Assembly (NCBI GenBank): GCA_944381135.1
Contig: CALWJY010000002.1
Coordinates: 1,929 to 65,928, forward strand
Source of the DNA: an uncultured Clostridia bacterium
GTDB lineage: Bacteria > Bacillota > Clostridia > Christensenellales > UBA1242
DNA: 64,000 nt
Direction of reading: 5' to 3'
The stretch's first letter is position 1, and every line of letters begins with the position of its first letter. The notes beneath the pieces are model-generated. The model was not told the DNA's origin. It was given only the letters and a program-made list of their open reading frames with translations, and did not search any database. Positions 44,501 to 62,362 of the stretch are shown here, piece after piece. The translations under genes and the position numbers were made by a program.

Positions 44501-47500
44501 AAAGCAAATTTATTTGAATTTTCAAGTTTTTCTATTATTACAGAAAGTGGAATTTCAACTCCAACATTTTCTCCACCTTCAATGATGTCTGTCAAAGTGT
44601 CATCTTCAAACACGCCAAACTCACCAATTACACCCTCATCAAATCCAACAAAGGAAATGTCCTGTTGATTATATTCTTCTTCACTATTAATTGTGAAATT
44701 ATATTCTGATGATTCGGTTGTGATTTCAAGATCAATTGATGTATTTAATTTTGTATCCACCTTTCTTATAATTGTCAATATGTTTCCCTCAGAAATTTCT
44801 GACGAGAAAACAGTCACTGGCAATTTAAGATACATTCTTCCTTTTGTGTTATAAAGTTCATCATCAATAATGTCATAGTCCCCAAGTTCAACTGGGATAC
44901 CATCCAGTTGAAATTGGATGTCTAAAACCGTTTCATCTCGATAGTCATTTGAAACTCCAGTGAAAAATGTTTCATCAACGCCCAAAAGGTCAAGATAGAT
45001 GTAATAATAACCTGCAAATTCATCAACATTCTCTTTCCTTAAAGTGAACGTTCCAACTTCTGATTGGTAGGCCAAACCAACAGTAATTTTTCCATCGATG
45101 TAAGGCTCAACAAAATAGAGATCTCCTTCAATGTGAACTATGTTGTCTTCAATGTAAAATGTGTCAATCACTTTAAATTGAGGTTTGTTGTCTCCATCCA
45201 CTTCAATTGTCACATTGTCTTTGCTTAATGAATCGGCATCAATGCTTGAAACCTCAATATCTGCTTTAAAGTGAGCTATGTAAGGAGAAACCACACTTAA
45301 AATGTTGTTTCTGTTTCTTGCAACAGCGACATAATCTCCATCCACATAAAATCTTTCGATCTCGCTTGAATCGTCAAAAATTGCGTTGTCAATGTCCTCA
45401 ATTTCAGACTCAATTGTTGTGGATCCAAAACCAGAATAAACAGAAATAGAGGAGCCCTCTTGCTTTTGCAAATTCCCACGAAGAAAAGTATCCTCAATAT
45501 TGCAATCAAACGCAAGAAGTCCAAAGCCATCTATTAAGGTCATTAAATCTCGTTCATCACCAGTGTCAACACCTTTCAAAACTTGGTCATATTCCACAAA
45601 TGAAACTGAAGAATAATAGGTTGTGTCAGATTGGAGATAATAAACATACTCCTCATCACTTTCGTTTATTTGTGTAATAAAGTTTCCTTCTCCATTTTCC
45701 GTCTTTTGAACACCTGTGGTTCCGTTTTCATCATCAAAAACTGCACTTTCATCAATTGTTCCATCTTCCAAATTTTTAATCATGGAATAATAATGATAGT
45801 CATAATCAACATATCTACGGAACCAAGAAACAAAGTTATCAAAAGTACCCTTTTCTGCATCCCTCACAAAAGTATCATCCCAACCAACTTCTTCTGCCCA
45901 TGTTTTCAGCCAGTCTTCAGCCAATTTTCTTGTCATGGTGTCATTGACATAAATTCTTGCAGGGATGCCATAGGAATCATAACCATTGACTGTATATTTT
46001 ACTGAACCATCATCATTCTTTTCAATTGAAAATTTTGCTTCATAGTCTTCTGAACCATTGCCATTGAAATCTCCATTGTTCAACATTGTTTTTCTGTCAA
46101 ATTTCATCAACTTTGTGTCTGACACTTCACCAACATTTCCATCATTGATTATATTGTCATCTGAAGACGAGCAATCTTCAACAAAAATTCGATTTGATGG
46201 AGCTAAATTTGGCTTCAAACTCGCAGAGCCCGCCTCAACTTCTGTGCCTACAGTTCCAATTCCATATGCATAGACATGTCTTAATTCACCAGGGTTGTAT
46301 GTGATTGTCACATAATAATACAGTGTTGAAGGGTTTTTGGTGAAGTCGGTGTTTTCTGAATAACTGCTTTCATCTCCTCCCTCGAACATCGGCGTGTCGA
46401 AGATCTCAATCTCATAGTTGTCTTCTTTTGTAAGTCGGTTGAGCGCTTCCACCTGTCCGTCATTGATGCACCCTGTGACATTCACATCTTTTTCGCCTGC
46501 CACCGCATACCCAAAAATTCCACCTGCATAGCTGAAATCAGCGTTGACATAACTCCCAGCGCCAACAAGTCCTGTGTTGAAACTTGAAGAAATGTCCGTG
46601 GACACTGCATAGCCCACAATTCCTCCAGCAAGGAAGTTTCCTGATTTGTTTATTGTATATCCTGAAAGCACGGCACCAGCATTGTAGGAATTGTCAATTG
46701 ATGAGTCGTCAGAATATCCAACAACACCTCCAACAATGCTGTCAAATTTTCTCTCTTTTGTATCAGGGCTATTCACTTTAATTGCAAAGAATGAAATCAA
46801 ATTGCTCACATCTCCCGTATAGACATTAGGGGCAATCAAATTTCCACTATTAGAAGAATATGAAACTGAAGTTCTGCTTACAACCGTCTCTGTTCCGTCA
46901 TCTTCAATTTTAACAACCGGCGAAATTTTCCCAAACACACCTCCAACAATCAGATTTTCTGTCAATGTGGAGTCAACATTCACATTTGCTTGAATTGCAG
47001 TTGCCGTTCCTTGAAATTCCGCCACAACACCTCCAACAATTTCTGATTCTGAAGTTGACAAATTTCCAATCACTGTGATGTTTGACAAATTCCCAACAAC
47101 ATTATTTGCAAAAGTTGCCCTTGCACCTTTAACATTAATGTCGGAAAGTCTCAAGTTTTCAATGCTTCCAATCACCTCATTAAACAAACTTTTTTCAAGA
47201 GGAGTGCCAATCTGAGTTTCATAAGACCTACCTGTCCCTAAAACATATGAATTTTCAGTGAATGCGAAATCCAAAGTTCTGCCATTTCCATCAAGGATGA
47301 AATCATATCCATCTTTCCCAACATTTTCAATGTTTTCATCCATCATCACAATGACATTTTCCATATCAATGTCATAGCGAAGCAAGAAACGATATGCTTT
47401 TGTATAAGCCGACCCTGAAGTGTCTGAAGTCTCTTCGACAACCGAAATTGTTTCAAGCATTTGAATGAATTTGCCTTCATTTGGAACACCATAAAACCAC

Positions 47501-50500
47501 TTAAGATTGTCTGCAACACCACTGACATCAACACCTGTTTCTTCATTGCTTGCACCTGTATAAAGTGATTTACTTCCACCTGATGAAAGAATGTCCCAAT
47601 ATGTGATAGGAGTATATTCGTAATTAGGCACAGGGTCATCATCTGAAGTCCCATCTAAAACCACATCTCTCGTATAGGTTGTGACATTTTTCAAATATCC
47701 AAATCCGTGAGACGCATAGCCATAGTTGATGAATGGCGAGAAAAACCATTCCGTGTCATAAGTATCCACTTCCGCATTTGGATCTAAACTCTTCACACTG
47801 AAACTTTCGTCACTGCTGTAAGGCAAAGAAATGGAATCAGCATCAGTTGTTGCATAATTTCCCCCTACACCTTCTGCTCCAGCAGTGCCATTCATAATAT
47901 TTTTGCCGACAAAATAGTTTGGCATGCTCATTGTTCCATCAGCATTTGGCACACCGATGAAATATGTTGCTTTGTCCGGTTCTGTGATACTTTCTGAAAT
48001 AATGTTTGTTCTTTCAAATTGTGCTATTGAGAAGTCATCAATCAAATATGAATATACATTGCTTGAAAAAGTGCTACTCCCGACAAAACTTGCAAATGTG
48101 AAGATTTCAACATTTGTGTATGACAAGATTTTTCCAGAAGAATAGGTTGCCATGATGGTTGAACGAGTGTTTACATTTGCAACTCCGGCAACATGTCCAC
48201 TTGAATTTCCACGATAAACAATGTCTGCATCCACATATGACTGGTTGATAAATCCGCCTTGCATTGAACCAGCAATTCCTGCCAATTCCAAATATGTTCC
48301 AGAAGTGCTTGAAGAATTTGAACTTCCAACAGAAACTTCACCCTTAACCCCAACGCCATAGATGAACGAATTTCCAGTCATCAAGCCAGTCACAGCCCCA
48401 TATGAATATGTTGCTTTTTCGATGTCAATGTCCACCAGAATGTTTGCGTCAATCAAGAAACCTGAAATGACATTGAAGTTTGGTCTTGTTGTTTGATTTA
48501 TTGAAGTGCCATATTCCACACCCATTTCATCAACAAGTCCACCAATATAAGAATCAGAAGTGCCACCTTTCACTTCTCTTGAGTCAGAAAGATTAAGCGT
48601 CTGTCCATTTCCAATCAAAGCGACATTGACAAGTTGAGTTGAAATTGTCTGACTTAAATCAAATGCAACACCCCCATCAGCATCTTGCGAGAATGCAACC
48701 CAAGAGATGTTGTGCGTTTCATCAAGTGTTCTGGTTAACGACGATGACTTAATCACATTATAATCATCGACATTTGTTGAAGTTGCAGGATGATATTCAA
48801 TAAATCTTTCATCGTCATAATTTTCCCAAATGTAAGGATTAAGTTTGTGTCCTTCAGTGAAATCAGATGAAATGGTCACACCGCTGCTTTCCAAAACATC
48901 AAGGATGTCTTCGAAAGAAGCAATTTCGTCTTCACTTCCAATTGATTCCAAAGAAGTCAAGTTGGTGTATCCTTGATATGGCAATGTTGTTCCATAAGCC
49001 AAATCAGTGTTTCCACTTTGCTCTTGATATGCCATGCAGACAACAGAACTATATTTGTTGTCAACAAAGTTCACCGCATCTGCACTTTCTCCAACAATTG
49101 CGTTGACGTTATATTCCAACGCAGAATGTGTGCTTCCGCTGTCACCTGCGTTCACTCTGTTGTTGAAAGATGTCATGATGGAATTGCAATTTTGGATTGT
49201 CATGTACGTTGCCTTTCCGACAATTCCACCAAAGTTATAATCTTGAAGTTCATAATTATGATATGTTGTTGTGACGTTTGTTGTCTGTGGAAGATAGTTG
49301 ACAAACACATCTCCATAGGAAGAAGAATTATAAATTTGGAACTGGCTGTTTTGTGGGTCGAAACTTCCATCTGAGAGTCCCTCGGAATTGAATTCACCAA
49401 CAATTCCGCCAACACTTGCAGTCCCGCCATCAAACTTGCTTCCGAAAATCTTGACTGCTCCACCAAAAATGTAGTTTGAGATGTGAACATATTGATCTGA
49501 GTCTTCATAATCTGAGCGTCCAACATAGCCAATAGTGCCACCAAATTTAAGATTGTTCACATCCGCAAGCACAGTTCCAGTGTAAGAAACATAGGAACTT
49601 TCTTGAATGTTGACAGGATATGCAACTGGTTCGTCTGTAGAAGATCGAACTCCTGCAAGGAATCCCAAAAAACCTCCCACATATGCATAAGAAGAAAATG
49701 CACTTGTTCCGGACGCAGATGAAACATCTTGCACAGCAATGTTAATTGCAATTTCTCCGGACATGTTTGTTTTGATGCATCCAAATGCTCTTCCAATGGC
49801 TCCACCAACTGAAACAATGAAAGTTTGACCCGGAGTTGTGAAATCTTCAGGGGTGTTTGTGGCAACATCAATTGCCCCTGAAATTTCAATTGTTCCTCTA
49901 ATGTCGATTGTAGAATCTGTTGCGTTTCCAATCAAGCCACCAAAAGAATCTTCTCCGCTGCACCCGGAAACAGTGAATGGTGAAAGGTTGTAATCATAAG
50001 CATTTTGAGCAAAAATTTCATCATAATTTTCAATTGCACTGTCATCATCCAATTTTGCTACAGTCAAATTGACGCTGAGTCCTGTGATTGTGACAGCAGT
50101 TTCCGCATGACCAATCAAACCACCAACATTTGCATTTGATATTGTTGCGTCGGCTCCTTGATAGATTGCACCGATGATTTGTGACATATCAGAAGGATTG
50201 ACACTCAGTCCTCCACCAAGGACAACTTGTCCAAAACCTAAGCCGGCATACAACGTTCCAACTGAAACATTTTGATGAATTGTGATTCCTGTCTCATAGT
50301 CAATGTCTCCTCCTTGAGAGATGACAGTCACTTCAGTTACGCCATTCAGTTCACCAACAAAACCACCAATGTAAGCATTTAAAATTGTCTTATCAGTGTC
50401 ACTTTCCACGATGTTGAGAATGACATCTGTTGTGTCAGTGATTCCAACATTCAGTCTTCCTCTGTTAGATCTTACTATTGCTCCAGCATACAGTCCTGCA

Positions 50501-53500
50501 TAAAGTGACGAGTCTCCACCAATGTGTGAAACATTAAAATCTATGACAACTGGTTGTTCTTCTTCATCCAGATTCATAAATTCAAATTGCAAACCTTGAA
50601 TTGAAACAGAATTGAAATCATTGTTTTGTTCAATATATCCAGCCAGAACACCTAAATATGCATTATATGAAGAAGAATCATCCAATCCAAATGTGAAAGT
50701 GAAACTGCTTTCTCTTAATGTAATTATTGTGCCAACAATTGTTGTTGAATATGCCACACTTGCAATCAAACCTGTTGACAAAATTCGTTCATCGCTTCCT
50801 TGAATTGTAACTGTACCTGCTGTAAGACTAATGTTGTTGTTGTAAACCAAATTCAAGTTTGTGAATGTTGCTCTGGAAACATCGCCCGCAACTAAGGAAT
50901 AGTTCACGGGATTTGTTGTCCCATCTGAAGATGTTTTTCCAGACATATAGATGCTCAATCCCTCAACAACCGCTCCATCCGCAAGACTGTTGAACAAACT
51001 TCTGTTGACAATAAGACCAACATCTTCGCCCAGTTCTCCTCCTTCACCAACATTGTCTCTCACATTAACCACACCTTCTGAGCGGTCATTCATATAGCTT
51101 GAATAGGAGATCAATGTTCCACTGAAATTTGAAATCCCCGCGAATGTTTCACTGACAACACTGAAATCAGTCAAATTAATGTCAGTATATTCATTATTAT
51201 ATTCTGAATCTTCCACTTTCCCTCTAACAATGACAGTTAAGTTTGGATTTTCTCTCATTTTTTGAATTGTTTGTGGTGTGTTATACACATCCCAGAACCA
51301 AATGTTGTTTTGTGGAACCAATTGAATGTGTGGGAAGAGATCATCTTGAGAATGTGTCCAAAATTCATCCGACCAACCATTCTCAATAAAATAACTATTA
51401 AATTGGTTATATGCAGCCGACATGCTTGCAAGTGCACTACTTCCAATTGAGGTTGCATTCAAAACGTATTGGTTTGCATTAGATCCGCCTTGAGAGTCAA
51501 AGCCAAATAAGTTAAGATTGACCATGTTCTGTCCAAAAACAATTGAAGAATATCCACCCACTGTGTTTGTACCAACGATGAATCCACTAGCGCTTAAAAG
51601 GTTGTTTGTTGCAACATCAAAATATTCATTACTTGAAGCAATGAGATAAAGCCCAGAGTTTAGGTTTGAACTCACCGAAACACCGGTTTCATTAAAAATT
51701 GAACCCACCAATGCATAGTGATGACTTGATGTGCTTGTTGCATCTCGAGTTGTCTCATCTCCAAGAAGACTTGCACCGCTGAATGAATAATAATTCATTG
51801 CAAGGGCATTTTTCAGTGCAATAACAGGAGAAACTCCACCAATTCGACCAATTGCACCAATAAGTCCACCACTCACAACAACAGGAGCACCATCTTCAAC
51901 CGCAGTTGAATGCAAATCTCCCGAAGCATAAACTTCATTCAACAGTATGTTGATTTCCGGCTGTCCGTATGCAAGAGTAAGGTCATATGAAACACTTGAA
52001 ACTCCAACCATTCCAACAATTCCACCAATTGCTTTGGTCTCTTGAGTGTCAACAATTACATTCAACTTGCTGTATCCAGTGCTGATGAATCCTCCGCCCA
52101 TATATCCAACAAGTCCACCAACATAAAGTGGAGCATCCGTGTCATTAACTTTATGCGAGAAGATGTCCTGTTGTCCTTTTTCAACATCAGCGTTGCCGTT
52201 ATAATATGCATTTTCATTCTCTTCAATCAACTCTTGAATTTCATCAGAATAACTTGCATACACAGCAAACAAACCGCCGTAGTTCTCTCCAACAAGACCA
52301 CCCGCATACAAGTTTTTGGCAATTATGTATGAAGGGTTATCTCCAGAATCAGAAGCGTCCAATTCCAAATTTGCGTCATAAACATATGTCGAGTTTCCAA
52401 CATATCCAAAAAGCCCACCAGCAACTTCGCCATAGATGTCAACCGCGTCAGTGACATGAATTTTCACAATGTCATAATCGCTGATTTCAAAAGTGTTAGA
52501 ATATTCAACAAAGTCGGAACCAGCTTGACTGCTGTAAACATCCACAAAGCCAACAATTGCGCCCGCATATGAAAGCGTGCTTACAGTGTCTCTCAAATCG
52601 CTTTCTGTGTCAACAAGATTTCTGAGCCTGCTTATTGCTGCATCATTTGCACCAACAATTTTCGAACCGCTGTATGAAGATGAATAAACCACAATGTTGG
52701 TTGCTGTCACATCATACATTTTGCTTTGTCCAAAAAGCATTCCCACAACACCACCAACAATGTTGTTTCCAAGAATTGAAGTGCCCTCATCATTTGTGCT
52801 TGATGGAGTGATGGAAATTGCCACAATCACACTGTCGTTTGCAACTCCAGCAAGAGTTCCAACAACGCTTGCTTGCGCGTTGTGAATTGAATCAACAATA
52901 AGATTCAAATTCATGACAATTGCCCCGTCAAGTTTTTTGAAAAGCCCATAACTGTCAACAGTGTCTCTCGCACCCAAATTTATGTTTGAAATTGTGAAGC
53001 CATTTCCGTCCAAAACTCCAGAGAATGTCTTGTTGAAAGTTGTAAGGTTTGCCGAACCTTCTTCTTCGTTGTTTTGGTCAATTTCAGACATGTCAACATC
53101 ATTGACAAGACGATAGTGTCCCGAAATTTCTGTGTCGGTGTAGTGTTGACGATAGTATGAAATTCCGCCATCTCCCAACGCGTCACCTGTTGCCATAACA
53201 AAATCATAGGCATCTCTGATGATGATTGGGTTATTTTCGCCGCCATATGTGATGTTGACATATTGTAATGTGCTGACATCTGGAAGGGACGTGCGATAGA
53301 ATATGCTGGTCAAAGAATTGTTTGTCACGGCATATCTGTTTGAAATTGCAATCTGATTTGCACTGACAAGAGTGATTCCTCTGCCTGTGGTTGTCCAAAT
53401 TCCGTCAGTTGAAGTCTCTCCTGAAGTGAAACTGAAACCATACAAACTGTCTGCAGGAGAATTTACAAATGTTGCGCTAAGTTCAATCACGCCCGGCGTC

Positions 53501-56500
53501 AGTGCTGTTTGGTTGGAAACATCTGTTCCGCCATTATAATAGTATGAATTTGTGATTGAACCCGTGTTTAAAGATGTCAATGACGAATCAACACCAGAGA
53601 ATGGTTTTTGGTTGCTGTCAGTTGACAAAACTTGACTTGCCGAGAAACAAAGACTGATGTTGCCAGAATTTATGTAAACAAATCCAGCAGCATAAGAAGG
53701 TCTTGAAGTTTCGTTTTCAATGGCAATGTTTGAATATGCATTCTTGATTTCACCAATGTTTTCATAAACAAAGCCTCCAACAACACCCATTGTTGTGATG
53801 TTTGAAGCAGTGAATTGAATTTCTGCTTCAGTTGCATCTGAAGCACTTGTCTGCACGCCTTCAACATAACTTGCTTGAATGCTGTCGGTGTTTGTGATGA
53901 CAAAACCTGCTGTTGTGGAAAGTGTCGATTCGGTGTTGTTGTTGATTTGCAAACTCTTTGCAAAACTTGAACTTATGTTTCCAGAGTTTGAAATTGCAAA
54001 CCCTGCAACATTATCTTGCCCTTGAATTGTGAAAGTGCCAAGTGTTTCTGTTTGGAGATATGGGTCTTCACCAACCAAAATTACATGTCTGAAACTTGAG
54101 CCACCCACACGGCTGTTGACAATGGAAGAGGTGTTTGTGATGACAAAACCTGCAATATTGCTTGAAAGACCATAATATGAAATCAATCTGTCTGTCAAGT
54201 TGACAGGGGTTGTGTTTTCTCCAATGGTGTAGTTCACCACAATTCCGTTGGTGGAGAAGTTTGTTGTTTGCGCTTCGCTTCGATAAGACACCACTTCACA
54301 ATTGTAGATTGTCCCATCATTTCTGATTGCGAAACCTGCAATGTTGATGTCACTATATTGTGCAATGTTGATGTCAATTTGCCCACCTGCATAGATGTTT
54401 ACACGCACATTTTTAAGAGTTGTGCCCTCAACAACATTGTTGAACAAAGCCAAATTCAAAGTGTTTCCGGTTGGCATTGCAAAACTGTTTATGTGAATGG
54501 TGTAACCATTTCCGTCCAAACTTGAAATCAAGTCTGTGTCAAGTGGCGTATAGTCAGAAAGCGTAATGTCATTCATCAAGATGTAGTCATCTGGCTGTTC
54601 TGAATTTGTGGCATAATCGACAAACTCTTCGGCTGTTGTGATTTGTGTTGGTGTTTCTTCATCCGACCAAATGTCCACAACAATAAGGAAATAATAATCA
54701 TATGTAAACACTGTGTTTTGATATATGACCGTGGTTGTAAGTTTCATTAGTTGACGACCTGTTCTTGTTCCGGTGATTTCCAAGACATTTCGATTTTCGT
54801 CTTCTTCAATTCTGAACAAATCGTTTTGATTGATGTGGTCATAGTTTTCATTGTAGATTGGTGACGAACTGCCATCACCCTCTGCAGTTGCGTAAGAAAG
54901 TTGTTGCTTAAGCGTCAAAGGAACACTGTATCTTCCCGTTGTTTCATTAAGACCATAATTGATGTAATATCCAACGGTTTCATTTGCATAGTTAAAGTCT
55001 GTCAAAAATTCTTCTCTTTCACTCAACAAAGTCTCAACAGCGCTCACTTGAGACGGGTCACTTGGGTCATAGTTGTATGTTTCAGGCATAAGAGGATATG
55101 TGAACGAAAGTGGATCTGTTGCACCAATATAGGAATAGAACACATCATATGTTCTGCCATTATATGTGGAGGTTGAACCAGAGCTGTTCAAAGAAATGTT
55201 GTCAGCATCCAAAGTGAAATCAACAAGATAGATTGTTGCTGTGCTGACCTTAATTTCAGGGTCAACATATCCACTTAATGTTCTTGAAACGGTTGCATTA
55301 ATTTGGAAAATTCCATTTGACGCCCCATTTGCAAGCCTTGCATCAACATCTGCGGTCACATATGCCGTGTAAATTCTTTGATTTCCAACATCTTCATATG
55401 TATAAGCGGTAAGGCTGACGCCATAGCCCGCACTTGTGTTTTGAAGTGTCAAACTGTCAAGGTTCTGGTCAAGTTCAGTGGTCACAGTCACAGTTGCGCT
55501 TTCACCCTTGGCAAGAAGATAGGTTGATTGCCCATTCACGCGGACAGTTGCAGCGGAAAGGTAGTCAACATTTAGGTCGATTGACCCCCAATCTAAAAGT
55601 TCGTCTCCATTATAGAAGTTTGCGGTCAATGTCACTTGGCTGTTTGCCGTGAAAGAACTGTAAACATAAACTCGGAAATAGAAAACTCCGTCTCCTGTTT
55701 TGTCTTCGTCTGTCAAATCAACTTGAAGTCCATTTATGACAGAAGAAGTTGAACTTGAACTTGCATAGAAGCCATAGTTTGCACTTCTTTCAAGTTTGGA
55801 AATTGAAATGACTCCCGACCCACTTCCAGAATTTTGATATGTCAAAGTGAAATGTGTCATAAGTGCATATGCTGGGTTGATACTGACAGTCACAATGGCA
55901 TCCGATGCAGGTGAAAGAGTGTTCAGTGTTGTGCTTGAAGGACGATAGTATGTGGTTGAACCATTCACTGAACGGCCGGAAATTGAATAGGTTTGAATGA
56001 AAATGCTTTCAACATTCTGCGTGTTGACAGTCAAGTCCACAGTTTTCAAAAGATTTGTGTTGTTTCTTTGACTGAGTGCATTCACAGTCAGTTGAATGTC
56101 ATATTTTTTGTCAACAAGATGACGATGTGCAGAATTGACTCTTGCAACCACATGAAATCTATATTCTCGCCCATTTTGTGAAACAAGACCCCATGTCACA
56201 TCAAGTTGCAATTTGTCATCCACCTCAAACGATGTGGAAGTTGCACTGCTGTCTGCAACTCCTTGCAAAGTTGTGCCATCATAAATCAAACCAAACACAA
56301 GATTGTCTTGAGCATTGTCTGAAATCAATGTGACATCAAACTCTGCATATTCAGAAGTTTTGAAAGAGAGGTTGTTTCCACCAGAAACCTCAAGTGCTGT
56401 TGCACCATCAAAAACCACAGCAACAAAGTCTCGGTTTTGCTCGGCCTTAATGGCATCTGAAAATACTTCATCCAAATTGGATGTGACAATGCTTGCCTGA

Positions 56501-59500
56501 ACGCTTGTTTCAGAATCGTTTGAATGACTTGAAATTCCTGTCAAAGAAAGTGTGTTTCCATTTAAAGTTGCTCTGATGTTTGCGTCACTAAGCGAAATTG
56601 AGCCATTTGCAACATTCTCACCCAAGGCAAAATCATATGAGTAAGCCCCTCGCACGCTTTGATATGGATTGGAATTAAGATAAATGGTGTTGTCCATTGA
56701 GAGTGACACAGAAACAGTGCTGTCTTTTTGCACCATAACCGTCTGCCCGTCTGAAAGCGTTTGTCCATCCACAGTTGTGACAAGAGTTGGAATGTTGTTT
56801 AAAACAACAAATTCAAAAGTTCGACTTTGTGTGAAATCCATTCTTGAATGAACTGTCACCTCAAATTCACTTAAATTTGTGCTTAAAGTCCTGATTGAAC
56901 CAGACTCCAACAAGACACTTGAAGATGGAGTTGTCAAAAGAAGTGTGTTTGCCTGTCTTTCAGTTTCAAGTCCAAAAAGTTGAGAAAGTGAAATTGTGTT
57001 GAATCTTTGAAGGTCAGATTGTTCTGCCGAATTTAGTCCATTTGCCGTCTCTGAAGAAACTGCATATAAGAACAAAATTCCTTTCTGCTCTCCCTTTTCT
57101 GAAGAAACATCCAAAGCCTTAAGCACAGAGTCTTCAACTCGAGAAATTGAAAGAGTTGAAACATCCACTGCAACATTTTGTGTTATGCTTTGAAGATATG
57201 GAAGTCCAAAGTTGACATCTGCATCAATGTTTTCTGTCACCCAAATTGAAGGCAACAAAGCATCAAAAGCACTGCTCACATTGAAAGTTGCAGAGTTTAC
57301 ACTGCCGGTTGAAGTTGTGAACCAAATATATGAATTGATTTGTCCATTATAATAATATGAAACATAGGAATCAACAACCGTGACATCTCCTTGGCTGTTT
57401 ATGGAGTTGTTTCCAATTGTTGATGAAGCATTCTGCAAGTTGCCCATGAAAGCAAAACTTTGGTTCACGCTTGCACCAATTTCATAAACTCCCATGAACG
57501 CCCCAACAACACTTGTGTTTCGAATGACTGTTGAAAAGCCTGCGTCTGCAACATCTTCCATTGGATATGCATAGGCATATGACGATGAAATCTGACTGCT
57601 TTCAGATGCATAGCCCACAATTCCGCCAAAAATGCCAGAATTTGAAGTTGTGACTGTGTTTGGAGAAACAATGTCTTCTCCGTCAGAGCCTGTCCCCGTG
57701 ACAAAATTATAAAATTCCACGCCCGAACCTTGAATACTTCCGCTGTTGAATCCTGCAATTCCGCCAACATATTGCTCTGTGCCACTCAAAGAACTGCTTG
57801 AATTGATTGTCATTCCATATGTGAAAGAATTGATGATGTTTCCATAGTTTTCGCCCGCAATTCCACCAATATATGTGGTTGCGTTTGTGGAAAGCGTGCT
57901 GCTTGAATATCTTTCATTTGTTGCATAATAAACATCCACAACAACATTTTGAATTGTTCCATTGTTGACGCGCGCCAAGAAACCAGAACTTGTGTTTCCC
58001 GCAACATCCGAAACATTGCCAGCAAAAGTCAAATCACGAATTGTTCCGCTGTTTTGGTCAACAAACACTTGGCTTTCTCCAGCCATTGTGAGTGTGATGT
58101 TGTCATCATTTCCAAACAACATTCCGCTGAAAGTTTCAAAAGATTGCCAACTGTTCAATGTGATGTTGTTCATGATTGTGTAATATCTTGCTGTGTCAAT
58201 TCTTCTAAGTTCGCTTTCGTTATAAATTCTGATTGCCGTCTCTTCTGTCAGTCCATCCGCAATCGTCACTTTAATTCTCAAGATGATGTTTGCATTATAA
58301 ACTTTTTCGCCGTCATTGTTGAGGAAATAATTGGAAAATTCACCATCATCGTCATTCAACTCACCCTCGCCAACAATGTCTTGATAGTTTTCTTCCAATT
58401 GGTCAAGAGGAACATATTTCACCTCTTCAACAATGTCTCCGTCCACATCTGTGGAATAGGAATAAAGCAAAACTTGATTGATTCCGTCCACATTTTTCAC
58501 CATGTCACTTGGCAAAAGATAGAGATATCCCACACCGCCAACTTCAGTGTTTATGCTGAGGTTGAAAGTCTGCGCTGTCTCATTTGTGCTTATGTTGAGG
58601 TTTGTGCTTGCACCGGTGTAAACCCATGTCAAACTGCGGTCATTTGCATTTGCTGGTGAAATTGAAGTCGAAATTGTTGCTCGTCTTTCCGATTGAGATT
58701 GTGAAGTCAAATTGAGATAGATTTCTCCGTCATATGTTTCATTCACCCATGTGACATTTTCCACACGGTTGACATTTCTGATTGTGATTCCAATTTCCAA
58801 ACTTCTTGAAAAGCCATTTGGGTCTTGATATGTCACACGCAAAGTGTCTTCAATGACAGTTGCCAATCTTGTTGAATCAGCAGTGATTCTGAATGTGAAC
58901 ATTCTGCCTTGATTCATAAATTGCATGTTGCTGATGGAATAGTAACCATTGCTCAATCTCAGTCCGGTTTCATCCAAAGAAAGTGCATATCCCTGTTCTG
59001 AAGTGAATGTGAGATATGAAAGGTCTCCTGTGTAGGTTGGAATGATGTCGTCGTTTCTGAATGAAATGCTCACATCAACATATGAGCGTGCGATGTCACT
59101 TTGACTTAAAGTTTCCACAGTATAAAGCAATGTTTCTCCAACTGTAGAAGTGAAATTGGTCACTGAATGCAAACTTTCCAAAGCAAATGCTCTCAAAAGG
59201 ACAACACTTTCATGATTCATGTCAAATCCACTGAAGACAGCCACCACAAATCCACGAAAATCATTGTTTGAAACAATCAATCGGTTTTCATAGATGTTAA
59301 ACATGGAAACATCCACATCCGTGAAGTTGTTAAAGAAGTTCAAAACGGCATAATCTGCGCCATCGCCACTTCTGAAAAGTTGATTTGCCAAAGTTGTCGC
59401 TTCTTCCAAACTCAAACCTTCCAACCCTCGAATTTGTGTGACAAAATTGTCAAATGAAAGATATCTGAATGTCACTCCCTCTTCAGAAAGAGATTGATAG

Positions 59501-61623
59501 GTCATGTTCAAAGAAATTGTTGCGCCCGCTTCGACAGTCAATTTTGACAAACTTTCGTTTGAAAGGTTGGTATCCTCAACAATTTCTCCCGCTTCATAGA
59601 CATATCCTTGAACAGAATTTTCGCTTTCAAACACATTCGTTGACTGCAAACTTCCGTTTGTTATGGAAGCAGATGTCAAAGGCACAAAGGCATAAATTTG
59701 GAAAGTCTGTGAAACTGAACCCGTGACATGTTCAAACCAGAAGTTGCTGACAGCTTCAAAATTATAGCCGACAAGAGAAACTGTGAAATCAAAAATGACA
59801 TAAGAGTCTTCCGCGCCTGTCAAAGCAGTGTATGAGTCCACAAGTGTCAAATTTGAGAAGATGAATCTTTGATTCCCATCATTTTGAAGTTCAAGTCCAG
59901 ACAAAGACGAAATTCCTCTCACTTTCACGCGATAGTTCAAAGAGCGTGCAACTGCTGTTTGACTTGAAGAGATGTATTGTGTCAAAATTTCACCATCTTC
60001 TGCGTCTGTCACAATCAAATTTTCACCTGTTGAATTCCTCAGTAAGTTCATATATATGCTGGTGCTTTTTGATGGGTCACTTACCGGCACAAATTCAAAT
60101 TCCACGCCTTCCATCACACCGCTGATGTTTTCACTTGCTCGAACCTGAACCTCAGAGCCACTTTGAAGACGTGTGGTCGAAACATAGATTGTGCTTCCAA
60201 TTTCCGATTGCTCAAATTGCAATTCTGTGCCACGATAGAAAAATCTCACAAAAGAAGAAACTCCGCCCACAACTCTTCCAGCAAGTGCAGATTGATTTAT
60301 GTCAACGGAAATGTAGAAAAGATTGTTGTCAACAGTCACATCTGTTGGCGTCAGCAATGTGCGAATGGTGTAACCAAACCCAGATGTATAGTCAGAAAAG
60401 ACATCAATTGTGTTGTTGTTGAGATTGTTTCCACTAACATTGGAAAGTTCCACCCTCTCGACTGCATAGGAAGAACTGATTGTGGTGTTCAAATTTTGCG
60501 TTGAAATGTCATAGTTGAAATCAACATATCCAATTCTCAAGAAAAATTTGAAATCTCCACCTCTTCTGACACCATTTTGATCTTGCGCGTCAATTGAAAA
60601 GTTGTATGAAACTGTCCCCGCAACATCATCAACAATTTTTTGTGTGATGTTGAATTGGAAAAATTGAGACCAATCAGCCTCTGCCATTTCAGCCCAAACA
60701 TTGTTGGAGTTTTGTTGCAAAACCACCAAAGATAAATTGACATCATAATCTGAATTGACAACAAGTGTTCCGTCAGCATTAGACCTTGAGGCATCATTTC
60801 GCTTAACTTCAAAACTTGCACCATTTGTCAAAACATCTTCATTGACAACTCCACCTTCAATCAAGACAATCTCGCCATTCAAGTTGGTTGAAATTGACAA
60901 ATCAGAAACGGCAGCATTTTCAAGCACTTCAAAAGTTATCACATTTGAAACACTTGTGTCGTAAACAAAAGTTGCTCTCAAAACAACTTGAGAAAGGTCA
61001 CAATTTTCACTTACAAACAAAATGTTGTTTTCTATGTATGCAATTGTCAAGTCATCAACCGTCAATTCCTTTGTGCCTGTTTCATCAAAATTCCAATCAA
61101 CATCACGAATGTTTGCTGTCACAGGTCTGAAATCAAAATAAGTTTCTGCGTCAAGTTTTGTTCCGTTTGTGTCGCCCTTAACGGCAAACAAATTGGAACG
61201 ATTGTCCACAGTGTCATCAGAAGAAACAACAATCTCCTCCAAATATGTGTCAACAGAAACCGCGACTTCTTGACTTGCACTGAAATCTTCAATTGATGAA
61301 ACTCTCACCCTTGCCTCGCCACTGCTGTCGCCATAAATTGTGAAATAATATTCATCACCGGTTCTGTGAGTGACCGAACTGACATGAATGCTGTCTTGCC
61401 CATCAATCACTTCCACTCTGACACCTTCTGAAGAATCTGTCAAGGTCACACCAATTTCTGCTTGCCCATAGTTTTCCGCATTCGGATTGTTTGTGGAAAT
61501 TGTAACTTCATTTGTGGACACAGAAAGAGAAACCTGTTTTCCACAAGCTGACAACAACATACCTCCAAAAATCAGAAAGACACTTAAGATTGCAACCGAA
61601 AGACTTTTTGCATAACTTTTCAT
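41563..61623 (-). CDS. giant surface lipoprotein (about 6,686 aa) with Ig-like arrays, at least 6-7 GLUG/beta-helix-type modules and a glycine-rich C-terminal module
   Basis: Uninterrupted 20-kb ORF. The start is ATG 61623 (GGAGGTCAC-ATG). MKSYAKSLSVAILSVFLIFGGMLLSAC is a lipoprotein signal peptide. The motif (L/F)(D/N)GNGxT(I/L), with variants IGNGQTL and FNGNGFML, recurs near 54.5, 53.0, 48.6, 47.3 and 42.9 kb. IGGIAG, VGGLVG and AGGIVGY turns occur throughout. The ORF-track start at 61728 lies in the promoter. Confidence 0.9.
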   Translation of the reverse strand: MKSYAKSLSVAILSVFLIFGGMLLSACGKQVSLSVSTNEVTISTNNPNAENYGQAEIGVTLTDSSEGVRVEVIDGQDSIHVSSVTHRTGDEYYFTIYGDSSGEARVRVSSIEDFSASQEVAVSVDTYLEEIVVSSDDTVDNRSNLFAVKGDTNGTKLDAETYFDFRPVTANIRDVDWNFDETGTKELTVDDLTIAYIENNILFVSENCDLSQVVLRATFVYDTSVSNVITFEVLENAAVSDLSISTNLNGEIVLIEGGVVNEDVLTNGASFEVKRNDASRSNADGTLVVNSDYDVNLSLVVLQQNSNNVWAEMAEADWSQFFQFNITQKIVDDVAGTVSYNFSIDAQDQNGVRRGGDFKFFLRIGYVDFNYDISTQNLNTTISSSYAVERVELSNVSGNNLNNNTIDVFSDYTSGFGYTIRTLLTPTDVTVDNNLFYISVDINQSALAGRVVGGVSSFVRFFYRGTELQFEQSEIGSTIYVSTTRLQSGSEVQVRASENISGVMEGVEFEFVPVSDPSKSTSIYMNLLRNSTGENLIVTDAEDGEILTQYISSSQTAVARSLNYRVKVRGISSLSGLELQNDGNQRFIFSNLTLVDSYTALTGAEDSYVIFDFTVSLVGYNFEAVSNFWFEHVTGSVSQTFQIYAFVPLTSASITNGSLQSTNVFESENSVQGYVYEAGEIVEDTNLSNESLSKLTVEAGATISLNMTYQSLSEEGVTFRYLSFDNFVTQIRGLEGLSLEEATTLANQLFRSGDGADYAVLNFFNNFTDVDVSMFNIYENRLIVSNNDFRGFVVAVFSGFDMNHESVVLLRAFALESLHSVTNFTSTVGETLLYTVETLSQSDIARSYVDVSISFRNDDIIPTYTGDLSYLTFTSEQGYALSLDETGLRLSNGYYSISNMQFMNQGRMFTFRITADSTRLATVIEDTLRVTYQDPNGFSRSLEIGITIRNVNRVENVTWVNETYDGEIYLNLTSQSQSERRATISTSISPANANDRSLTWVYTGASTNLNISTNETAQTFNLSINTEVGGVGYLYLLPSDMVKNVDGINQVLLYSYSTDVDGDIVEEVKYVPLDQLEENYQDIVGEGELNDDDGEFSNYFLNNDGEKVYNANIILRIKVTIADGLTEETAIRIYNESELRRIDTARYYTIMNNITLNSWQSFETFSGMLFGNDDNITLTMAGESQVFVDQNSGTIRDLTFAGNVSDVAGNTSSGFLARVNNGTIQNVVVDVYYATNERYSSSTLSTNATTYIGGIAGENYGNIINSFTYGMTINSSSSLSGTEQYVGGIAGFNSGSIQGSGVEFYNFVTGTGSDGEDIVSPNTVTTSNSGIFGGIVGYASESSQISSSYAYAYPMEDVADAGFSTVIRNTSVVGAFMGVYEIGASVNQSFAFMGNLQNASSTIGNNSINSQGDVTVVDSYVSYYYNGQINSYIWFTTSTGSVNSATFNVSSAFDALLPSIWVTENIDADVNFGLPYLQSITQNVAVDVSTLSISRVEDSVLKALDVSSEKGEQKGILFLYAVSSETANGLNSAEQSDLQRFNTISLSQLFGLETERQANTLLLTTPSSSVLLESGSIRTLSTNLSEFEVTVHSRMDFTQSRTFEFVVLNNIPTLVTTVDGQTLSDGQTVMVQKDSTVSVSLSMDNTIYLNSNPYQSVRGAYSYDFALGENVANGSISLSDANIRATLNGNTLSLTGISSHSNDSETSVQASIVTSNLDEVFSDAIKAEQNRDFVAVVFDGATALEVSGGNNLSFKTSEYAEFDVTLISDNAQDNLVFGLIYDGTTLQGVADSSATSTSFEVDDKLQLDVTWGLVSQNGREYRFHVVARVNSAHRHLVDKKYDIQLTVNALSQRNNTNLLKTVDLTVNTQNVESIFIQTYSISGRSVNGSTTYYRPSSTTLNTLSPASDAIVTVSINPAYALMTHFTLTYQNSGSGSGVISISKLERSANYGFYASSSSTSSVINGLQVDLTDEDKTGDGVFYFRVYVYSSFTANSQVTLTANFYNGDELLDWGSIDLNVDYLSAATVRVNGQSTYLLAKGESATVTVTTELDQNLDSLTLQNTSAGYGVSLTAYTYEDVGNQRIYTAYVTADVDARLANGASNGIFQINATVSRTLSGYVDPEIKVSTATIYLVDFTLDADNISLNSSGSTSTYNGRTYDVFYSYIGATDPLSFTYPLMPETYNYDPSDPSQVSAVETLLSEREEFLTDFNYANETVGYYINYGLNETTGRYSVPLTLKQQLSYATAEGDGSSSPIYNENYDHINQNDLFRIEEDENRNVLEITGTRTGRQLMKLTTTVIYQNTVFTYDYYFLIVVDIWSDEETPTQITTAEEFVDYATNSEQPDDYILMNDITLSDYTPLDTDLISSLDGNGYTIHINSFAMPTGNTLNLALFNNVVEGTTLKNVRVNIYAGGQIDINIAQYSDINIAGFAIRNDGTIYNCEVVSYRSEAQTTNFSTNGIVVNYTIGENTTPVNLTDRLISYYGLSSNIAGFVITNTSSIVNSRVGGSSFRHVILVGEDPYLQTETLGTFTIQGQDNVAGFAISNSGNISSSFAKSLQINNNTESTLSTTAGFVITNTDSIQASYVEGVQTSASDATEAEIQFTASNITTMGVVGGFVYENIGEIKNAYSNIAIENETSRPSYAAGFVYINSGNISLCFSASQVLSTDSNQKPFSGVDSSLTSLNTGSITNSYYYNGGTDVSNQTALTPGVIELSATFVNSPADSLYGFSFTSGETSTDGIWTTTGRGITLVSANQIAISNRYAVTNNSLTSIFYRTSLPDVSTLQYVNITYGGENNPIIIRDAYDFVMATGDALGDGGISYYRQHYTDTEISGHYRLVNDVDMSEIDQNNEEEGSANLTTFNKTFSGVLDGNGFTISNINLGARDTVDSYGLFKKLDGAIVMNLNLIVDSIHNAQASVVGTLAGVANDSVIVAISITPSSTNDEGTSILGNNIVGGVVGMLFGQSKMYDVTATNIVVYSSSYSGSKIVGANDAAISRLRNLVDTESDLRDTVSTLSYAGAIVGFVDVYSSQAGSDFVEYSNTFEISDYDIVKIHVTDAVDIYGEVAGGLFGYVGNSTYVYDANLELDASDSGDNPSYIIAKNLYAGGLVGENYGGLFAVYASYSDEIQELIEENENAYYNGNADVEKGQQDIFSHKVNDTDAPLYVGGLVGYMGGGFISTGYSKLNVIVDTQETKAIGGIVGMVGVSSVSYDLTLAYGQPEINILLNEVYASGDLHSTAVEDGAPVVVSGGLIGAIGRIGGVSPVIALKNALAMNYYSFSGASLLGDETTRDATSTSSHHYALVGSIFNETGVSVSSNLNSGLYLIASSNEYFDVATNNLLSASGFIVGTNTVGGYSSIVFGQNMVNLNLFGFDSQGGSNANQYVLNATSIGSSALASMSAAYNQFNSYFIENGWSDEFWTHSQDDLFPHIQLVPQNNIWFWDVYNTPQTIQKMRENPNLTVIVRGKVEDSEYNNEYTDINLTDFSVVSETFAGISNFSGTLISYSSYMNDRSEGVVNVRDNVGEGGELGEDVGLIVNRSLFNSLADGAVVEGLSIYMSGKTSSDGTTNPVNYSLVAGDVSRATFTNLNLVYNNNISLTAGTVTIQGSDERILSTGLIASVAYSTTIVGTIITLRESSFTFTFGLDDSSSYNAYLGVLAGYIEQNNDFNSVSIQGLQFEFMNLDEEEQPVVIDFNVSHIGGDSSLYAGLYAGAIVRSNRGRLNVGITDTTDVILNIVESDTDKTILNAYIGGFVGELNGVTEVTVISQGGDIDYETGITIHQNVSVGTLYAGLGFGQVVLGGGLSVNPSDMSQIIGAIYQGADATISNANVGGLIGHAETAVTITGLSVNLTVAKLDDDSAIENYDEIFAQNAYDYNLSPFTVSGCSGEDSFGGLIGNATDSTIDIRGTIEISGAIDVATNTPEDFTTPGQTFIVSVGGAIGRAFGCIKTNMSGEIAINIAVQDVSSASGTSAFSSYAYVGGFLGFLAGVRSSTDEPVAYPVNIQESSYVSYTGTVLADVNNLKFGGTIGYVGRSDYEDSDQYVHISNYIFGGAVKIFGSKFDGGTASVGGIVGEFNSEGLSDGSFDPQNSQFQIYNSSSYGDVFVNYLPQTTNVTTTYHNYELQDYNFGGIVGKATYMTIQNCNSIMTSFNNRVNAGDSGSTHSALEYNVNAIVGESADAVNFVDNKYSSVVCMAYQEQSGNTDLAYGTTLPYQGYTNLTSLESIGSEDEIASFEDILDVLESSGVTISSDFTEGHKLNPYIWENYDDERFIEYHPATSTNVDDYNVIKSSSLTRTLDETHNISWVAFSQDADGGVAFDLSQTISTQLVNVALIGNGQTLNLSDSREVKGGTSDSYIGGLVDEMGVEYGTSINQTTRPNFNVISGFLIDANILVDIDIEKATYSYGAVTGLMTGNSFIYGVGVKGEVSVGSSNSSSTSGTYLELAGIAGSMQGGFINQSYVDADIVYRGNSSGHVAGVANVNTRSTIMATYSSGKILSYTNVEIFTFASFVGSSTFSSNVYSYLIDDFSIAQFERTNIISESITEPDKATYFIGVPNADGTMSMPNYFVGKNIMNGTAGAEGVGGNYATTDADSISLPYSSDESFSVKSLDPNAEVDTYDTEWFFSPFINYGYASHGFGYLKNVTTYTRDVVLDGTSDDDPVPNYEYTPITYWDILSSGGSKSLYTGASNEETGVDVSGVADNLKWFYGVPNEGKFIQMLETISVVEETSDTSGSAYTKAYRFLLRYDIDMENVIVMMDENIENVGKDGYDFILDGNGRTLDFAFTENSYVLGTGRSYETQIGTPLEKSLFNEVIGSIENLRLSDINVKGARATFANNVVGNLSNITVIGNLSTSESEIVGGVVAEFQGTATAIQANVNVDSTLTENLIVGGVFGKISPVVKIEDDGTETVVSRTSVSYSSNSGNLIAPNVYTGDVSNLISFFAIKVNSPDTKERKFDSIVGGVVGYSDDSSIDNSYNAGAVLSGYTINKSGNFLAGGIVGYAVSTDISSSFNTGLVGAGSYVNADFSYAGGIFGYAVAGEKDVNVTGCINDGQVEALNRLTKEDNYEIEIFDTPMFEGGDESSYSENTDFTKNPSTLYYYVTITYNPGELRHVYAYGIGTVGTEVEAGSASLKPNLAPSNRIFVEDCSSSDDNIINDGNVGEVSDTKLMKFDRKTMLNNGDFNGNGSEDYEAKFSIEKNDDGSVKYTVNGYDSYGIPARIYVNDTMTRKLAEDWLKTWAEEVGWDDTFVRDAEKGTFDNFVSWFRRYVDYDYHYYSMIKNLEDGTIDESAVFDDENGTTGVQKTENGEGNFITQINESDEEYVYYLQSDTTYYSSVSFVEYDQVLKGVDTGDERDLMTLIDGFGLLAFDCNIEDTFLRGNLQKQEGSSISVYSGFGSTTIESEIEDIDNAIFDDSSEIERFYVDGDYVAVARNRNNILSVVSPYIAHFKADIEVSSIDADSLSKDNVTIEVDGDNKPQFKVIDTFYIEDNIVHIEGDLYFVEPYIDGKITVGLAYQSEVGTFTLRKENVDEFAGYYYIYLDLLGVDETFFTGVSNDYRDETVLDIQFQLDGIPVELGDYDIIDDELYNTKGRMYLKLPVTVFSSEISEGNILTIIRKVDTKLNTSIDLEITTESSEYNFTINSEEEYNQQDISFVGFDEGVIGEFGVFEDDTLTDIIEGGENVGVEIPLSVIIEKLENSNKFAFGDMDGFYAINYSSQRTEPWSVTDNSPDDGVLVSISGDALRLEGDSTLVNEFVEEMSSWTVYYNTTPWRMSDLSSDMLENEQEIKEDVFLVLTARSMNEQFSVIEEGGIPVYIGSPENFDSLSGEGIVNESVTYFGMDFHAVTVTYICDQIRNLVIELPEEDVGYDIRVYEGDKESGTIKNLTQGVSNETKQVSISGNIAFDDSVYVSYVQNTQLSFTYGGENYIYGDNYNGKLNIYTTSNSLSISNSSDLTTEGSISYSVEKGNDEDNGSYISTSREVYTNDYDVESYEYRIYDNGMIEISYLYSRLVDGGGFIDFDLYEFQIDAEGNVTSSSHSFIDGLSIAVSELPEPDVDESFSCTDLTEFIDGYIIIDEHHDEHHPIDIDLIVGDFDENGIQFIKNETSGLTFGAEAQLSGEDGESDDIRDLTLYVNTKDESESWIFRGADNYVEDSLEIRNATRNGEWQTFSKGVSLNANSYTAIDYEYRYKLSISTGTTVSTETEVTHDDEVSAIVLNSDISLGEISGFDLNEMIFNGNGFMLKYISKVTSDGGSLFEENSGDIRNLNFVAQTTYSKSSFGAYNSGSSILFGTNSASLLNVKTFGNFRNISAQPDEYSSVLGKINDGDVVIDVDSSVTMDGADASSGQDVNITLAQYEIDAVTVENINYVSHEVFVAGNAVKGDNGEDGTSSEISSASDFNGGHGDDGGHGGQLDGTVVYYSRSGLDSIGGYGGNGAHGTMSENKAIAYGGGGGGQAGENGAYDLHYAGNRVYTESHAGRDYYIQYGGNGGVGCLGYVTMDEYLLAGAPGGSGNADRPGSRGSMGRKELNIDSAGTLLMLANNAESLKTAAHLFDCHEKGSILGIGTGHGGVWSDLITNNETWGTWKDSWKVLVEDVTDEQINDETRSAGDGADWGKLSTVKELYVRLGIEWRFDGIYKFVVQEGRWDVRDFEKYVWTSGEAVNSGGIYGVACQGSTTIFRD

Positions 61624-61698
61624 GTGACCTCCAAAAATAATATTTGCAAAATGATTAAAATAATCACGCGCAAAATGATTTAACACTAAGTTATAAAT

Positions 61699-61728
61699 AT
61701 TATAATACTTCTCACGCGCGCAAGTCAA
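61699..61728 (-). promoter_or_regulatory. sigma-A promoter of the giant lipoprotein gene
   Basis: The minus strand reads TTGACT (61723-61728), an 18-nt spacer tgcgcgcgtgagaagtat, then TATAAT (61699-61704). About 70 nt of leader runs to the GGAGG RBS. Confidence 0.65.
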
Positions 61729-61741: not shown

Positions 61742-62021
61742 AAATCAAAAAATTCAGAAAAAATATTTTTAACGAAATTTGATGCAAATTATTTCAACAA
61801 TTTTTAATTTGACTAAAAAATTTCAAAAAAATTATTTTAATTTTTTTTAAAATTTTTAACATTCGTTAAAATTTGAAACAAAAACAAATTGAGAAAAAAT
61901 TAAACAAAAATATAAAAAATTGTAAAAAAAACAATTTTTTGGGCATTTTTTTGACTTTTTTGTGAATTTTTCATTTAATTTTTATAATTTATTTATTTTT
62001 AATTTCTGAATTTTTTGATTT
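61742..62021. repeat. perfect 19-bp inverted repeats flanking a 242-bp AT-rich segment (candidate invertible element)
   Basis: aaatcaaaaaattcagaaa at 61742-61760 is the exact reverse complement of tttctgaattttttgattt at 62003-62021. The enclosed segment carries plus-strand promoter-like TTGACT-17-TTTAAT (61951-61979) and TTGTGA-17-TATAAT (61960-61988). Confidence 0.6.
61914..61940. repeat. 10-bp inverted repeat hairpin AAAAAATTGT-A7-ACAATTTTTT
   Basis: Read directly from the sequence. A related copy with a T-rich loop occurs at 30771-30792 (AAAATTG-tttttttg-CAATTTT), preceded in both places by aaaaatataaaaaa. Confidence 0.6.
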
Positions 62022-62104: not shown

Positions 62105-62362
62105 CTAAAGACTTCTTTCATGTGCAAATTTGGCTTTGGTGGATTGCCCTCCTCTGATGTGTTTTTCTGAAAAATTTTCATCCAAAACCTTCTTGACTTC
62201 ATCATACATTTTGGAGTCAACTTTTTGAAGTCTTTTTGAAAGGTCATTGTGCACAGTGCTTTTGCTCAAATTGAAAACTTTGGCGGTTTGTCTGATTGTT
62301 TGATGTGTGTTTGAAATGTATTGCGCCACTTGAAGTGTTCGCTCTTTGATGTAAGGTTTCAT
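62105..62362 (-). CDS. spoIIID: sporulation transcriptional regulator SpoIIID
   Basis: 85 aa. MKPYIKERTLQVAQYI, the KSTVHNDL helix-turn-helix and the HIRGGQSTKAKF tail closely parallel B. subtilis SpoIIID as I recall it. The RBS is GGGAGGGG. Confidence 0.9.
   Translation of the reverse strand: MKPYIKERTLQVAQYISNTHQTIRQTAKVFNLSKSTVHNDLSKRLQKVDSKMYDEVKKVLDENFSEKHIRGGQSTKAKFAHERSL

Follow-up and report, generated by a model that had tools for sequence, protein, structure and literature searches.

The right end of the analysed window (a 64-kb stretch of contig CALWJY010000002.1 from an uncultured Clostridia bacterium) carries an M23 peptidase gene, an acyl-carrier-protein gene, the sporulation regulator gene spoIIID, a 480-bp spacer and a 20-kb gene, all on the minus strand. 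The product of this giant gene begins with a lipoprotein signal peptide, with the lipobox LSAC (…LLSAC-G). Within the spacer, a perfect 19-bp inverted repeat brackets a short intergenic segment, and the original prediction interpreted this arrangement as an invertible promoter element (inverton) acting on the giant gene. Part of that interpretation stands, as the repeat is unusual for its spacer and one of the two junctions predicted for an inverted segment was found at a contig end. What speaks against it is that the orientation of the segment is uniform in the assemblies and that the repeat is absent from related species. The reading favoured here, on about even chances, is that the repeat is a static and species-specific by-product of the make-up of the spacer and not a recombination site.

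The two arms of the repeat are exact reverse complements (19/19) with 242 bp in between, precisely where they had been placed (Table 1). Complementarity is at background directly outside and directly inside the arms, and a 39-nt extension is just 77% complementary. Read from the sequence, neither arm has internal dyad symmetry. Relative to the inferred transcription start of the giant gene, the left arm covers about -50 to -68, within the UP-element zone; its outer edge is 13 nt upstream of the -35 hexamer of the gene's fixed promoter. The right arm starts 84 nt past the spoIIID stop codon, in the A-rich run-up (in the direction of the gene) to a terminator-like hairpin. The spacer as a whole has a G+C content (GC) of ~17%, falling to 11-15% in 100-nt windows in its middle, and on the plus strand its left half is A-rich and its right half T-rich. 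Arms and segment together form a 280-bp weak quasi-palindrome with 65% identity to its own reverse complement. This element is flanked by ...GACAAAAA and ACTTTTCT..., with no direct duplication.

The best promoter match of the region lies outside the repeat, between it and the giant gene. It fits a sigma-A (sigma-70-type) promoter, with predicted -35 and -10 hexamers, a spacing within 17 ± 1 and a conserved position upstream of the gene. Two further promoter-like motifs lie inside the segment, where they overlap (61951..61988) and read antisense towards the 3′ end of spoIIID. All three were found where and in the orientation that had been claimed. The region holds 11 promoter-like matches against 6.1 ± 2.3 in shuffled sequence (~2 standard deviations above), and the two internal motifs are near chance density for DNA this AT-rich. 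The segment also contains an AU-rich hairpin followed by a U-rich tract (61940->61914; -8.3 kcal/mol, z = -2.1). Its stem, its U tract and its conserved position make it the predicted intrinsic (Rho-independent) terminator of spoIIID. A consensus terminator scanner misses this hairpin because the stem has fewer than three G-C pairs.

Table 1. Positions of the repeat, the genes beside it and their predicted signals (window coordinates unless a relative is named)
Feature	Position	Strand	Remarks
Left arm of repeat, AAATCAAAAAATTCAGAAA	61742..61760		perfect 19-bp inverted repeat
Right arm of repeat, TTTCTGAATTTTTTGATTT	62003..62021		perfect 19-bp inverted repeat
Bracketed segment	61761..62002		242 bp, 11-15% GC in 100-nt windows
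Predicted fixed sigma-A-type promoter of giant gene, TTGACT-18-TATAAT	61699..61728	minus (61728->61699)	11/12 match
Promoter-like motif TTGACT-17-TTTAAT	61951-61979	plus	10/12 match, inside segment
Promoter-like motif TTGTGA-17-TATAAT	61960-61988	plus	10/12 match, inside segment
AU-rich hairpin AAAAAATTGT / ACAATTTTTT, then U-rich tract	61914..61940	minus	spoIIID terminator-like element, inside segment
Conserved box TTGCAAATATTA in 5′ untranslated region	61638..61649	minus	just upstream of ribosome-binding site
TTGCA(A/G)ATATTA box in relatives	L005 ~5067-5078; L007 ~4584-4595; L137 ~3047-3058; L139 ~3345-3356		
GGAGG ribosome-binding site of giant gene	61632->61628	minus	
Giant gene	41563..61623	minus (ATG 61623, stop 41563)	6,686 amino acids, lipoprotein
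spoIIID	62105..62362	minus (62362->62105)	85 amino acids, Pfam PF12116; upstream neighbour of spacer

Relatives with the gene order spoIIID -> giant gene were reached through SpoIIID homologues in five species. Their SpoIIID identities to the window are 81% (L005/L006), 80% (L137), 79% (L007-L011), 76% (L139) and 75% (L140/L141), and UvrB from the contig of L005 is 94% identical to UvrB of the window. All belong to an uncultured Clostridia group near Candidatus Caccovivens. In the six species the giant gene stands directly downstream of spoIIID, and its products in the five relatives are 6,449-7,204 amino acids long. Five strains of one relative are collinear.

The layout of the spacer is common to all five relatives: an A-rich run, an AU-rich hairpin, a T-rich run, a T-rich stretch and then the conserved promoter. 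The promoter can be aligned in the six species as TTTGACTT-N17-TATAAT and is conserved across them in the form AAAATTTGACTT-N17-TATAATATATATA. A hairpin ATGCAAAAAA…TTTTTTGCAT with a T tract is found at the equivalent position in every relative (5/5), with folding energies of -13.6 to -14.4 kcal/mol and z-scores of -3.0 to -4.4. None of the five spacers has a perfect inverted repeat of more than 13 nt (the longest ones range from 0 to 13 nt), and the repeat is thus specific to the species of the window. No counterparts of the two internal promoter-like motifs were seen in the relatives' sequences either. The stretch that holds the left arm aligns loosely with the relatives' T-rich DNA upstream of the promoter. 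Most of the bracketed DNA is the hairpin of the predicted spoIIID terminator plus the A-rich and T-rich runs beside it, in the ancestral layout and homologous to the terminator region of the relatives. It is resident terminator and promoter-upstream DNA and not an insertion. The relatives do not indicate which orientation of the segment is the original one, because the region is quasi-palindromic and the better-scoring orientation varies with the scoring scheme.

In the closest relative, L005, 839 bp separate spoIIID from the giant gene. Within them lie a direct repeat of ~20 nt, TTGTTTTTAGAGTGTTTGT, whose copies at 4354-4372 and 4702-4722 are 350 nt from each other, and, at ~4667-4695, one more consensus promoter-like site (TTGACG-17-TATAAT). 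The combination suggests a local duplication.

If the repeat is a static by-product, the spacer would be the ordinary terminator-plus-promoter region of a very AT-rich genome. Along the direction of transcription, the spoIIID stop codon is followed by an A-rich run and by the AU-rich hairpin and T-rich run of the putative spoIIID terminator. A T-rich UP-element-like zone, the predicted fixed sigma-A promoter TTGACT-18-TATAAT and a 5′ untranslated region of ~70 nt come next. This untranslated region carries the conserved TTGCAAATATTA box, ahead of the ribosome-binding site and the giant lipoprotein gene. With an A-rich half opposite a T-rich half and the same short A/T-run words in both, complementary matches would be enriched, and one of them would happen to extend to 19 nt. 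The giant gene would always be transcribed from its fixed promoter, without switching. The promoter and the terminator probably work, and the repeat probably has no function. Expression of the giant gene does not require the repeat, because the conserved fixed promoter stands outside it, and flipping could at most add a second promoter; it could not act as an on/off switch.

The spacer can be compared with bidirectional intrinsic terminators combined with UP-element-type regions. In both, an AU-rich hairpin lies between A-rich and T-rich runs after the stop codon, and a T-rich zone precedes a consensus -35/-10 promoter, which is the layout in all six species. Such terminator spacers normally contain no more than short and imperfect complementary matches (8-15 nt in 20 comparable spacers). 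Here, in contrast, the match is perfect over 19 nt, its halves are 242 bp apart and it is not concentric with the hairpin, which is unusual.

How unusual the repeat is was assessed as the chance of a perfect inverted repeat of ≥19 nt with an intervening distance of 30-1000 nt arising within this one spacer. Dinucleotide shuffles, whether of the whole region or block-wise with the local A/T skew kept, give a chance of 0.2-0.4%. Markov models of order 2-5, built from 6.4 kb of other AT-rich spacers of the clade with the A-rich/T-rich profile kept, give 0.08-0.43%. A less stringent figure, about 0.9-2%, is extrapolated from the exact matches that this spacer shares with unrelated AT-rich ones. 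The expectation of below 0.01 in the original prediction was thus about right for this spacer, but it ignored that there are three such spacers per window and ~100 per genome. With long AT-rich spacers occurring at ~3 per 64-kb window and the genome taken as ~100 spacers, a few tenths of such a repeat (roughly 0.3-0.5) would be expected by chance per genome, a figure that is inferred and not computed. The repeat is therefore moderately rarer than chance for this spacer, yet not decisively so genome-wide, and the statistics alone do not decide between flipping and a by-product.

The sequence of the repeat is of low complexity. At least 119 unrelated genomes, ranging from Planctomycetia to archaea, contain the exact 19-mer. 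A 17-nt stretch at 61738-61754, which starts 4 nt before the left arm and takes in its first 13 nt, recurs at 25311-25327 in another spacer, and exact matches of 16-17 nt tie the spacer to two unrelated AT-rich spacers of the window. A different spacer, at 30593-31034, is also quasi-palindromic (440 bp, 14% GC) and lies between convergent genes for a RadC-like protein (plus) and a metallo-beta-lactamase-fold protein (minus). It contains a 15-nt perfect inverted repeat, AAAAAATTGTTTTTT. This spacer aligns in both directions with the spoIIID terminator region, so such spacers have A/T-run words in common.

Several observations weigh against a static by-product. Among 21 comparable AT-rich spacers the perfect 19-nt repeat is a clear outlier: the longest inverted repeats in the 20 others (all ≥200 nt, from the window and related loci) measure 8-15 nt, and composition-matched simulations give p ~0.003. 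The location is also typical of phase variation (PMC11892184), with a gene for a giant surface lipoprotein immediately downstream. The remaining observations come from the end of one contig. With S as the 19-mer AAATCAAAAAATTCAGAAA and S′ as its reverse complement, inversion predicts the junctions GACAAAAA-S-TTAAAAATAAAT and AAAAATATTT-S′-ACTTTTCT. One other assembly of the species, L001 (MEGAHIT contig k141_563342, ERZ27280699), ends five bases past the distal arm at a predicted inverted junction. It ends S′-ACTTT (…GATTT-ACTTT), and the window reads S′-TTTTT (…GATTT-TTTTT) at this place; ACTTT is the start of the outer flank of the other arm, reverse-complemented. When the inverted allele was built in silico, the last 195 nt of k141_563342 proved identical to it, a match that an artefact would produce equally well.

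The end of k141_563342 is exceptional. In a scan of 62 contig ends for a terminal stretch with its reverse complement ≤800 nt away, only this one stood out, with 24 nt whose reverse complement lies 243 nt away; at the remaining 61 ends the stretch was ≤11 nt. An inverted-junction end is therefore not a general property of contig ends. A sequencing error was considered as the cause and is unlikely, as it would need two adjacent substitutions giving exactly the predicted bases, and 61 other ends show no such likeness. There must therefore have been at least one sequenced molecule in which the far end of the segment was linked, via the repeat, to the flank on the spoIIID side.

Such a molecule may come from a real inversion or from a fold-back artefact of the library, and the same product is expected equally from either. 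Fold-back or strand pairing at natural inverted repeats during library preparation and end repair yields chimeric reads (PMC10908179). The likeness to the PDSM, or fold-back, model of that study is close, since the switch occurs exactly at the repeat boundary and joins the reverse-complemented flank of the other arm. The chimeric reads of that study likewise formed at nearly perfect inverted repeats. The repeats described there differ in mostly having both arms near each other in a single read; a separation of 242 bp is only raised as a possibility. Melting and snapping back would presumably come easily to spacer DNA this AT-rich. The contig runs just 5 nt past the repeat, with two bases that discriminate between the alleles, and the junction therefore probably comes from a single read or from duplicates.

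Four other assemblies of the species (L001-L004) reach the spacer, and together with the window all five carry the segment in one and the same orientation, with identical arms. The four may represent perhaps three sources, as L002 and L004 have adjacent run accessions and L001 and L003 share a variant base. Contigs were sought via SpoIIID, the acyl carrier protein and the M23 peptidase; only these four extend into the spacer, and the rest break at earlier AT-rich spacers. The breaks were considered as a sign of heterogeneity, an idea that was rejected: in this species, contigs assembled from short reads are interrupted at nearly all AT-rich intergenic spacers (examples are L132-L134, L143-L147 and L003). 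A scan of Joint Genome Institute metagenome contigs for the inverted junction and for an arm with its flank found nothing, with the caveat that the species is not in that collection.

Tentatively, at somewhat less than even chances, the repeat is instead a true inverton, in which a recombinase encoded elsewhere in the genome inverts the segment between the 19-bp arms. In the orientation of the window, the internal promoters would fire over the right arm and into spoIIID, antisense to its 3′ end. In the flipped orientation, they would stand ~45 nt upstream of the fixed -35 hexamer and form a second, tandem promoter of the giant gene. Neither the arms nor any position promoter-proximal to -49 would be changed by flipping. 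Its effect would be to modulate expression and not to turn it on or off, giving a subpopulation that differs in the level of the surface protein, perhaps with antisense RNA to spoIIID. This reading accounts for a perfect repeat that is rare by chance for this spacer, for a bracketed segment of the right size class, for arms identical in all strains seen and for a predicted inverted junction at one independent contig end and at no other end tested. Two outward-directed promoter matches near one end of the segment and a giant lipoprotein gene downstream, a typical target class, are as expected. Invertons are moreover enriched near cell-surface genes, and their invertases need not adjoin them (PMC11892184).

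Apart from the repeat, its location and the junction of k141_563342, every line of evidence is neutral or negative for flipping. All evidence of it consists of the five junction bases at the end of k141_563342, and exactly such chimeric reads arise by fold-back at natural inverted repeats. The orientation is the same in 5/5 assemblies, and the repeat is missing from five relatives with the same locus. Complete recombinase core sites usually have internal dyad symmetry, which the arms lack. The ~71 kb examined, namely the 64-kb window and L136, a 7.7-kb contig that overlaps the end of the window and extends ~5 kb beyond it, yielded no recombinase. For the window this agrees with the original prediction and rests on a Pfam scan of 20 open reading frames (ORFs) of ≥89 amino acids and of the giant gene, with the ORF at 11384-21973 and many small ORFs left out; for L136 precomputed Pfam matches were used. 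A switch run by a global invertase would share its repeat consensus with other loci of the genome. Within the 64-kb window, the sole region tested, there is no consensus shared with other loci: besides the two arms no copy was found at ≤2 mismatches, and there are just two partnerless matches with three mismatches. A genome-wide search with the 19-mer is uninformative because true copies would be swamped by chance matches, as the hits in unrelated genomes make plain.

Comparison with known switches points in both directions. In Clostridioides difficile, the RecV-dependent switches (cwpV, flgB, cmrRST) have AT-rich inverted repeats of ~20 bp, a short intergenic segment, a large surface or envelope target and a distant recombinase. 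The invertible DNA of cwpV and flgB separates the fixed promoter from the coding sequence and acts on the transcript, and both orientations of the C. difficile switches have been demonstrated. The locus described here resembles cwpV and flgB in belonging to a member of the Clostridia, in its short intergenic segment bracketed by an AT-rich repeat and in its large surface protein. However, its segment is upstream of the fixed promoter and has no effect on transcripts that start there, and in place of two demonstrated orientations there is a single 5-nt hint at a contig end, with no recombinase found in the ~71 kb examined.

The Escherichia coli fimS element and the polysaccharide promoters of Bacteroides (inverted by Mpi/Tsr) are likewise segments of a few hundred base pairs with an outward promoter and an adjacent gene for a surface structure. 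In those systems the invertible promoter is the only one of its operon and works as an ON/OFF switch, whereas here a stronger and conserved main promoter lies outside the element. The Bacteroides repeats occur at many loci per genome with a common consensus, and here there is no second copy in 64 kb. The recombinase genes fimB and fimE adjoin fimS, but here no recombinase was found within ~20 kb on the side of the giant gene or within ~7 kb on the side of spoIIID. The claim that the geometry matches known invertons was therefore too strong, given the conserved promoter outside the repeat, the resident terminator DNA inside it, promoter motifs at chance density and a single orientation in all five assemblies.

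Whether the segment flips is about an even bet. The weights given here (about half for the by-product, rather less for inversion and a small remainder for everything else) are a judgement and not a calculation. An elaborated form of the inversion reading, in which an unlinked recombinase runs a two-way switch that ties the sporulation regulator to the surface protein, is improbable. In one orientation, antisense RNA over the 3′ end of spoIIID would damp the mother-cell regulator; in the other, there would be extra transcription of the giant lipoprotein gene, and the spoIIID terminator would itself lie inside the invertible DNA.

The arms may alternatively be a pair of protein-binding sites, at which a regulator binds both 19-bp sequences, loops the DNA between them and controls the fixed promoter. 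The arms are identical and invariant in the strains seen, one is in the promoter-upstream zone (centred at ~-59 of the promoter of the giant gene), and the other is 261 bp further upstream, which is ~25 helical turns and near-integral. This explanation is very unlikely: the sites lack dyad symmetry, are of low complexity and are not conserved at the orthologous promoters of five species, which are themselves conserved. SpoIIID-type sites have an ACA core in their consensus, and the 19-mer has none. Looping would also leave the inverted junction of L001 unexplained.

Pairing of the arms in RNA, as a 19-bp A-U helix in read-through spoIIID transcripts that might serve, for example, as an RNase III processing site, is hardly probable. 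The arms do pair in the minimum-free-energy and centroid folds of both strands, but the stability is no better than that of shuffled sequences (z = -0.15 for the transcribed strand and -1.36 for the other), no Rfam family matches the region and the pairing is not kept in relatives. Most transcripts should, moreover, stop short of the second arm, given the terminator hairpin that intervenes. Lastly, the spacer between spoIIID and the giant gene might have received a miniature inverted-repeat transposable element, non-autonomous and 280 bp long, with the 19-bp arms as its terminal inverted repeats. The size, the terminal repeats and their absence in relatives would fit, but the idea is rejected: a target-site duplication is missing, neither the window nor L136 has a second copy (only low-complexity similarity), and the interior is homologous to the resident spoIIID terminator region of the relatives and hence not foreign DNA.

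If the segment does flip, an uncultured gut lineage of Clostridia would phase-vary the dose of a 6,686-amino-acid lipoprotein whose gene is conserved beside spoIIID in at least six species. The giant protein would then be marked as a surface antigen or adhesin under fluctuating selection. As a system it would be one more ordinary bacterial phase-variation switch, adding to the known invertons whose recombinase is encoded far away; this would be useful but nothing new in kind. If the repeat is static, it would be a caution: very AT-rich terminator-promoter spacers are compositionally palindromic and can give perfect 19-bp repeats complete with plausible promoters. In either case a single read with an inverted junction is no proof of inversion, as fold-back artefacts form at identical sites.

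The giant protein has no above-threshold Pfam domain, its sole match being a sub-threshold Peptidase_M26_N at residues 2832-2937. A search of its N-terminus against an index of 5.8 billion proteins returned zero matches, with the protein itself also missing from the results.

The 5′ untranslated region of the giant gene contains a conserved element of its own. The TTGCAAATATTA box was found in the window, L005, L007, L137 and L139 and is part of the fixed signals of the giant gene, not of the repeat. In the form TTGCA(A/G)ATATTA it lies 5-9 nt upstream of GGAGG in 5/6 species, and the remaining 5′ untranslated region has diverged. A regulator of transcription or translation could use the box as its operator. 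Direct repeats are present at 61635-61720 (minus), in the promoter spacer and the 5′ untranslated region, with GCGCGTGA and AATCATTTTGC occurring twice each. These islands containing G+C within A/T-only DNA may be regulator sites as well.

The gene content of the window as a whole consists of core functions and includes rpoB, rpoC, uvrA, uvrB, hflX, fba and two radC paralogues. The latter encode a pair of RadC-like JAB-domain proteins at 29820-30581 (plus) and 40728-41480 (minus), <11 kb apart. A second giant ORF (11384-21973, minus; 3,529 amino acids) lies just downstream of an ORF at 22232-24928 (minus), whose 898-amino-acid product has TraG / HerA / FtsK-type P-loop domains. This ORF pair is preceded by another AT-rich spacer of 480 bp (24948-25427).

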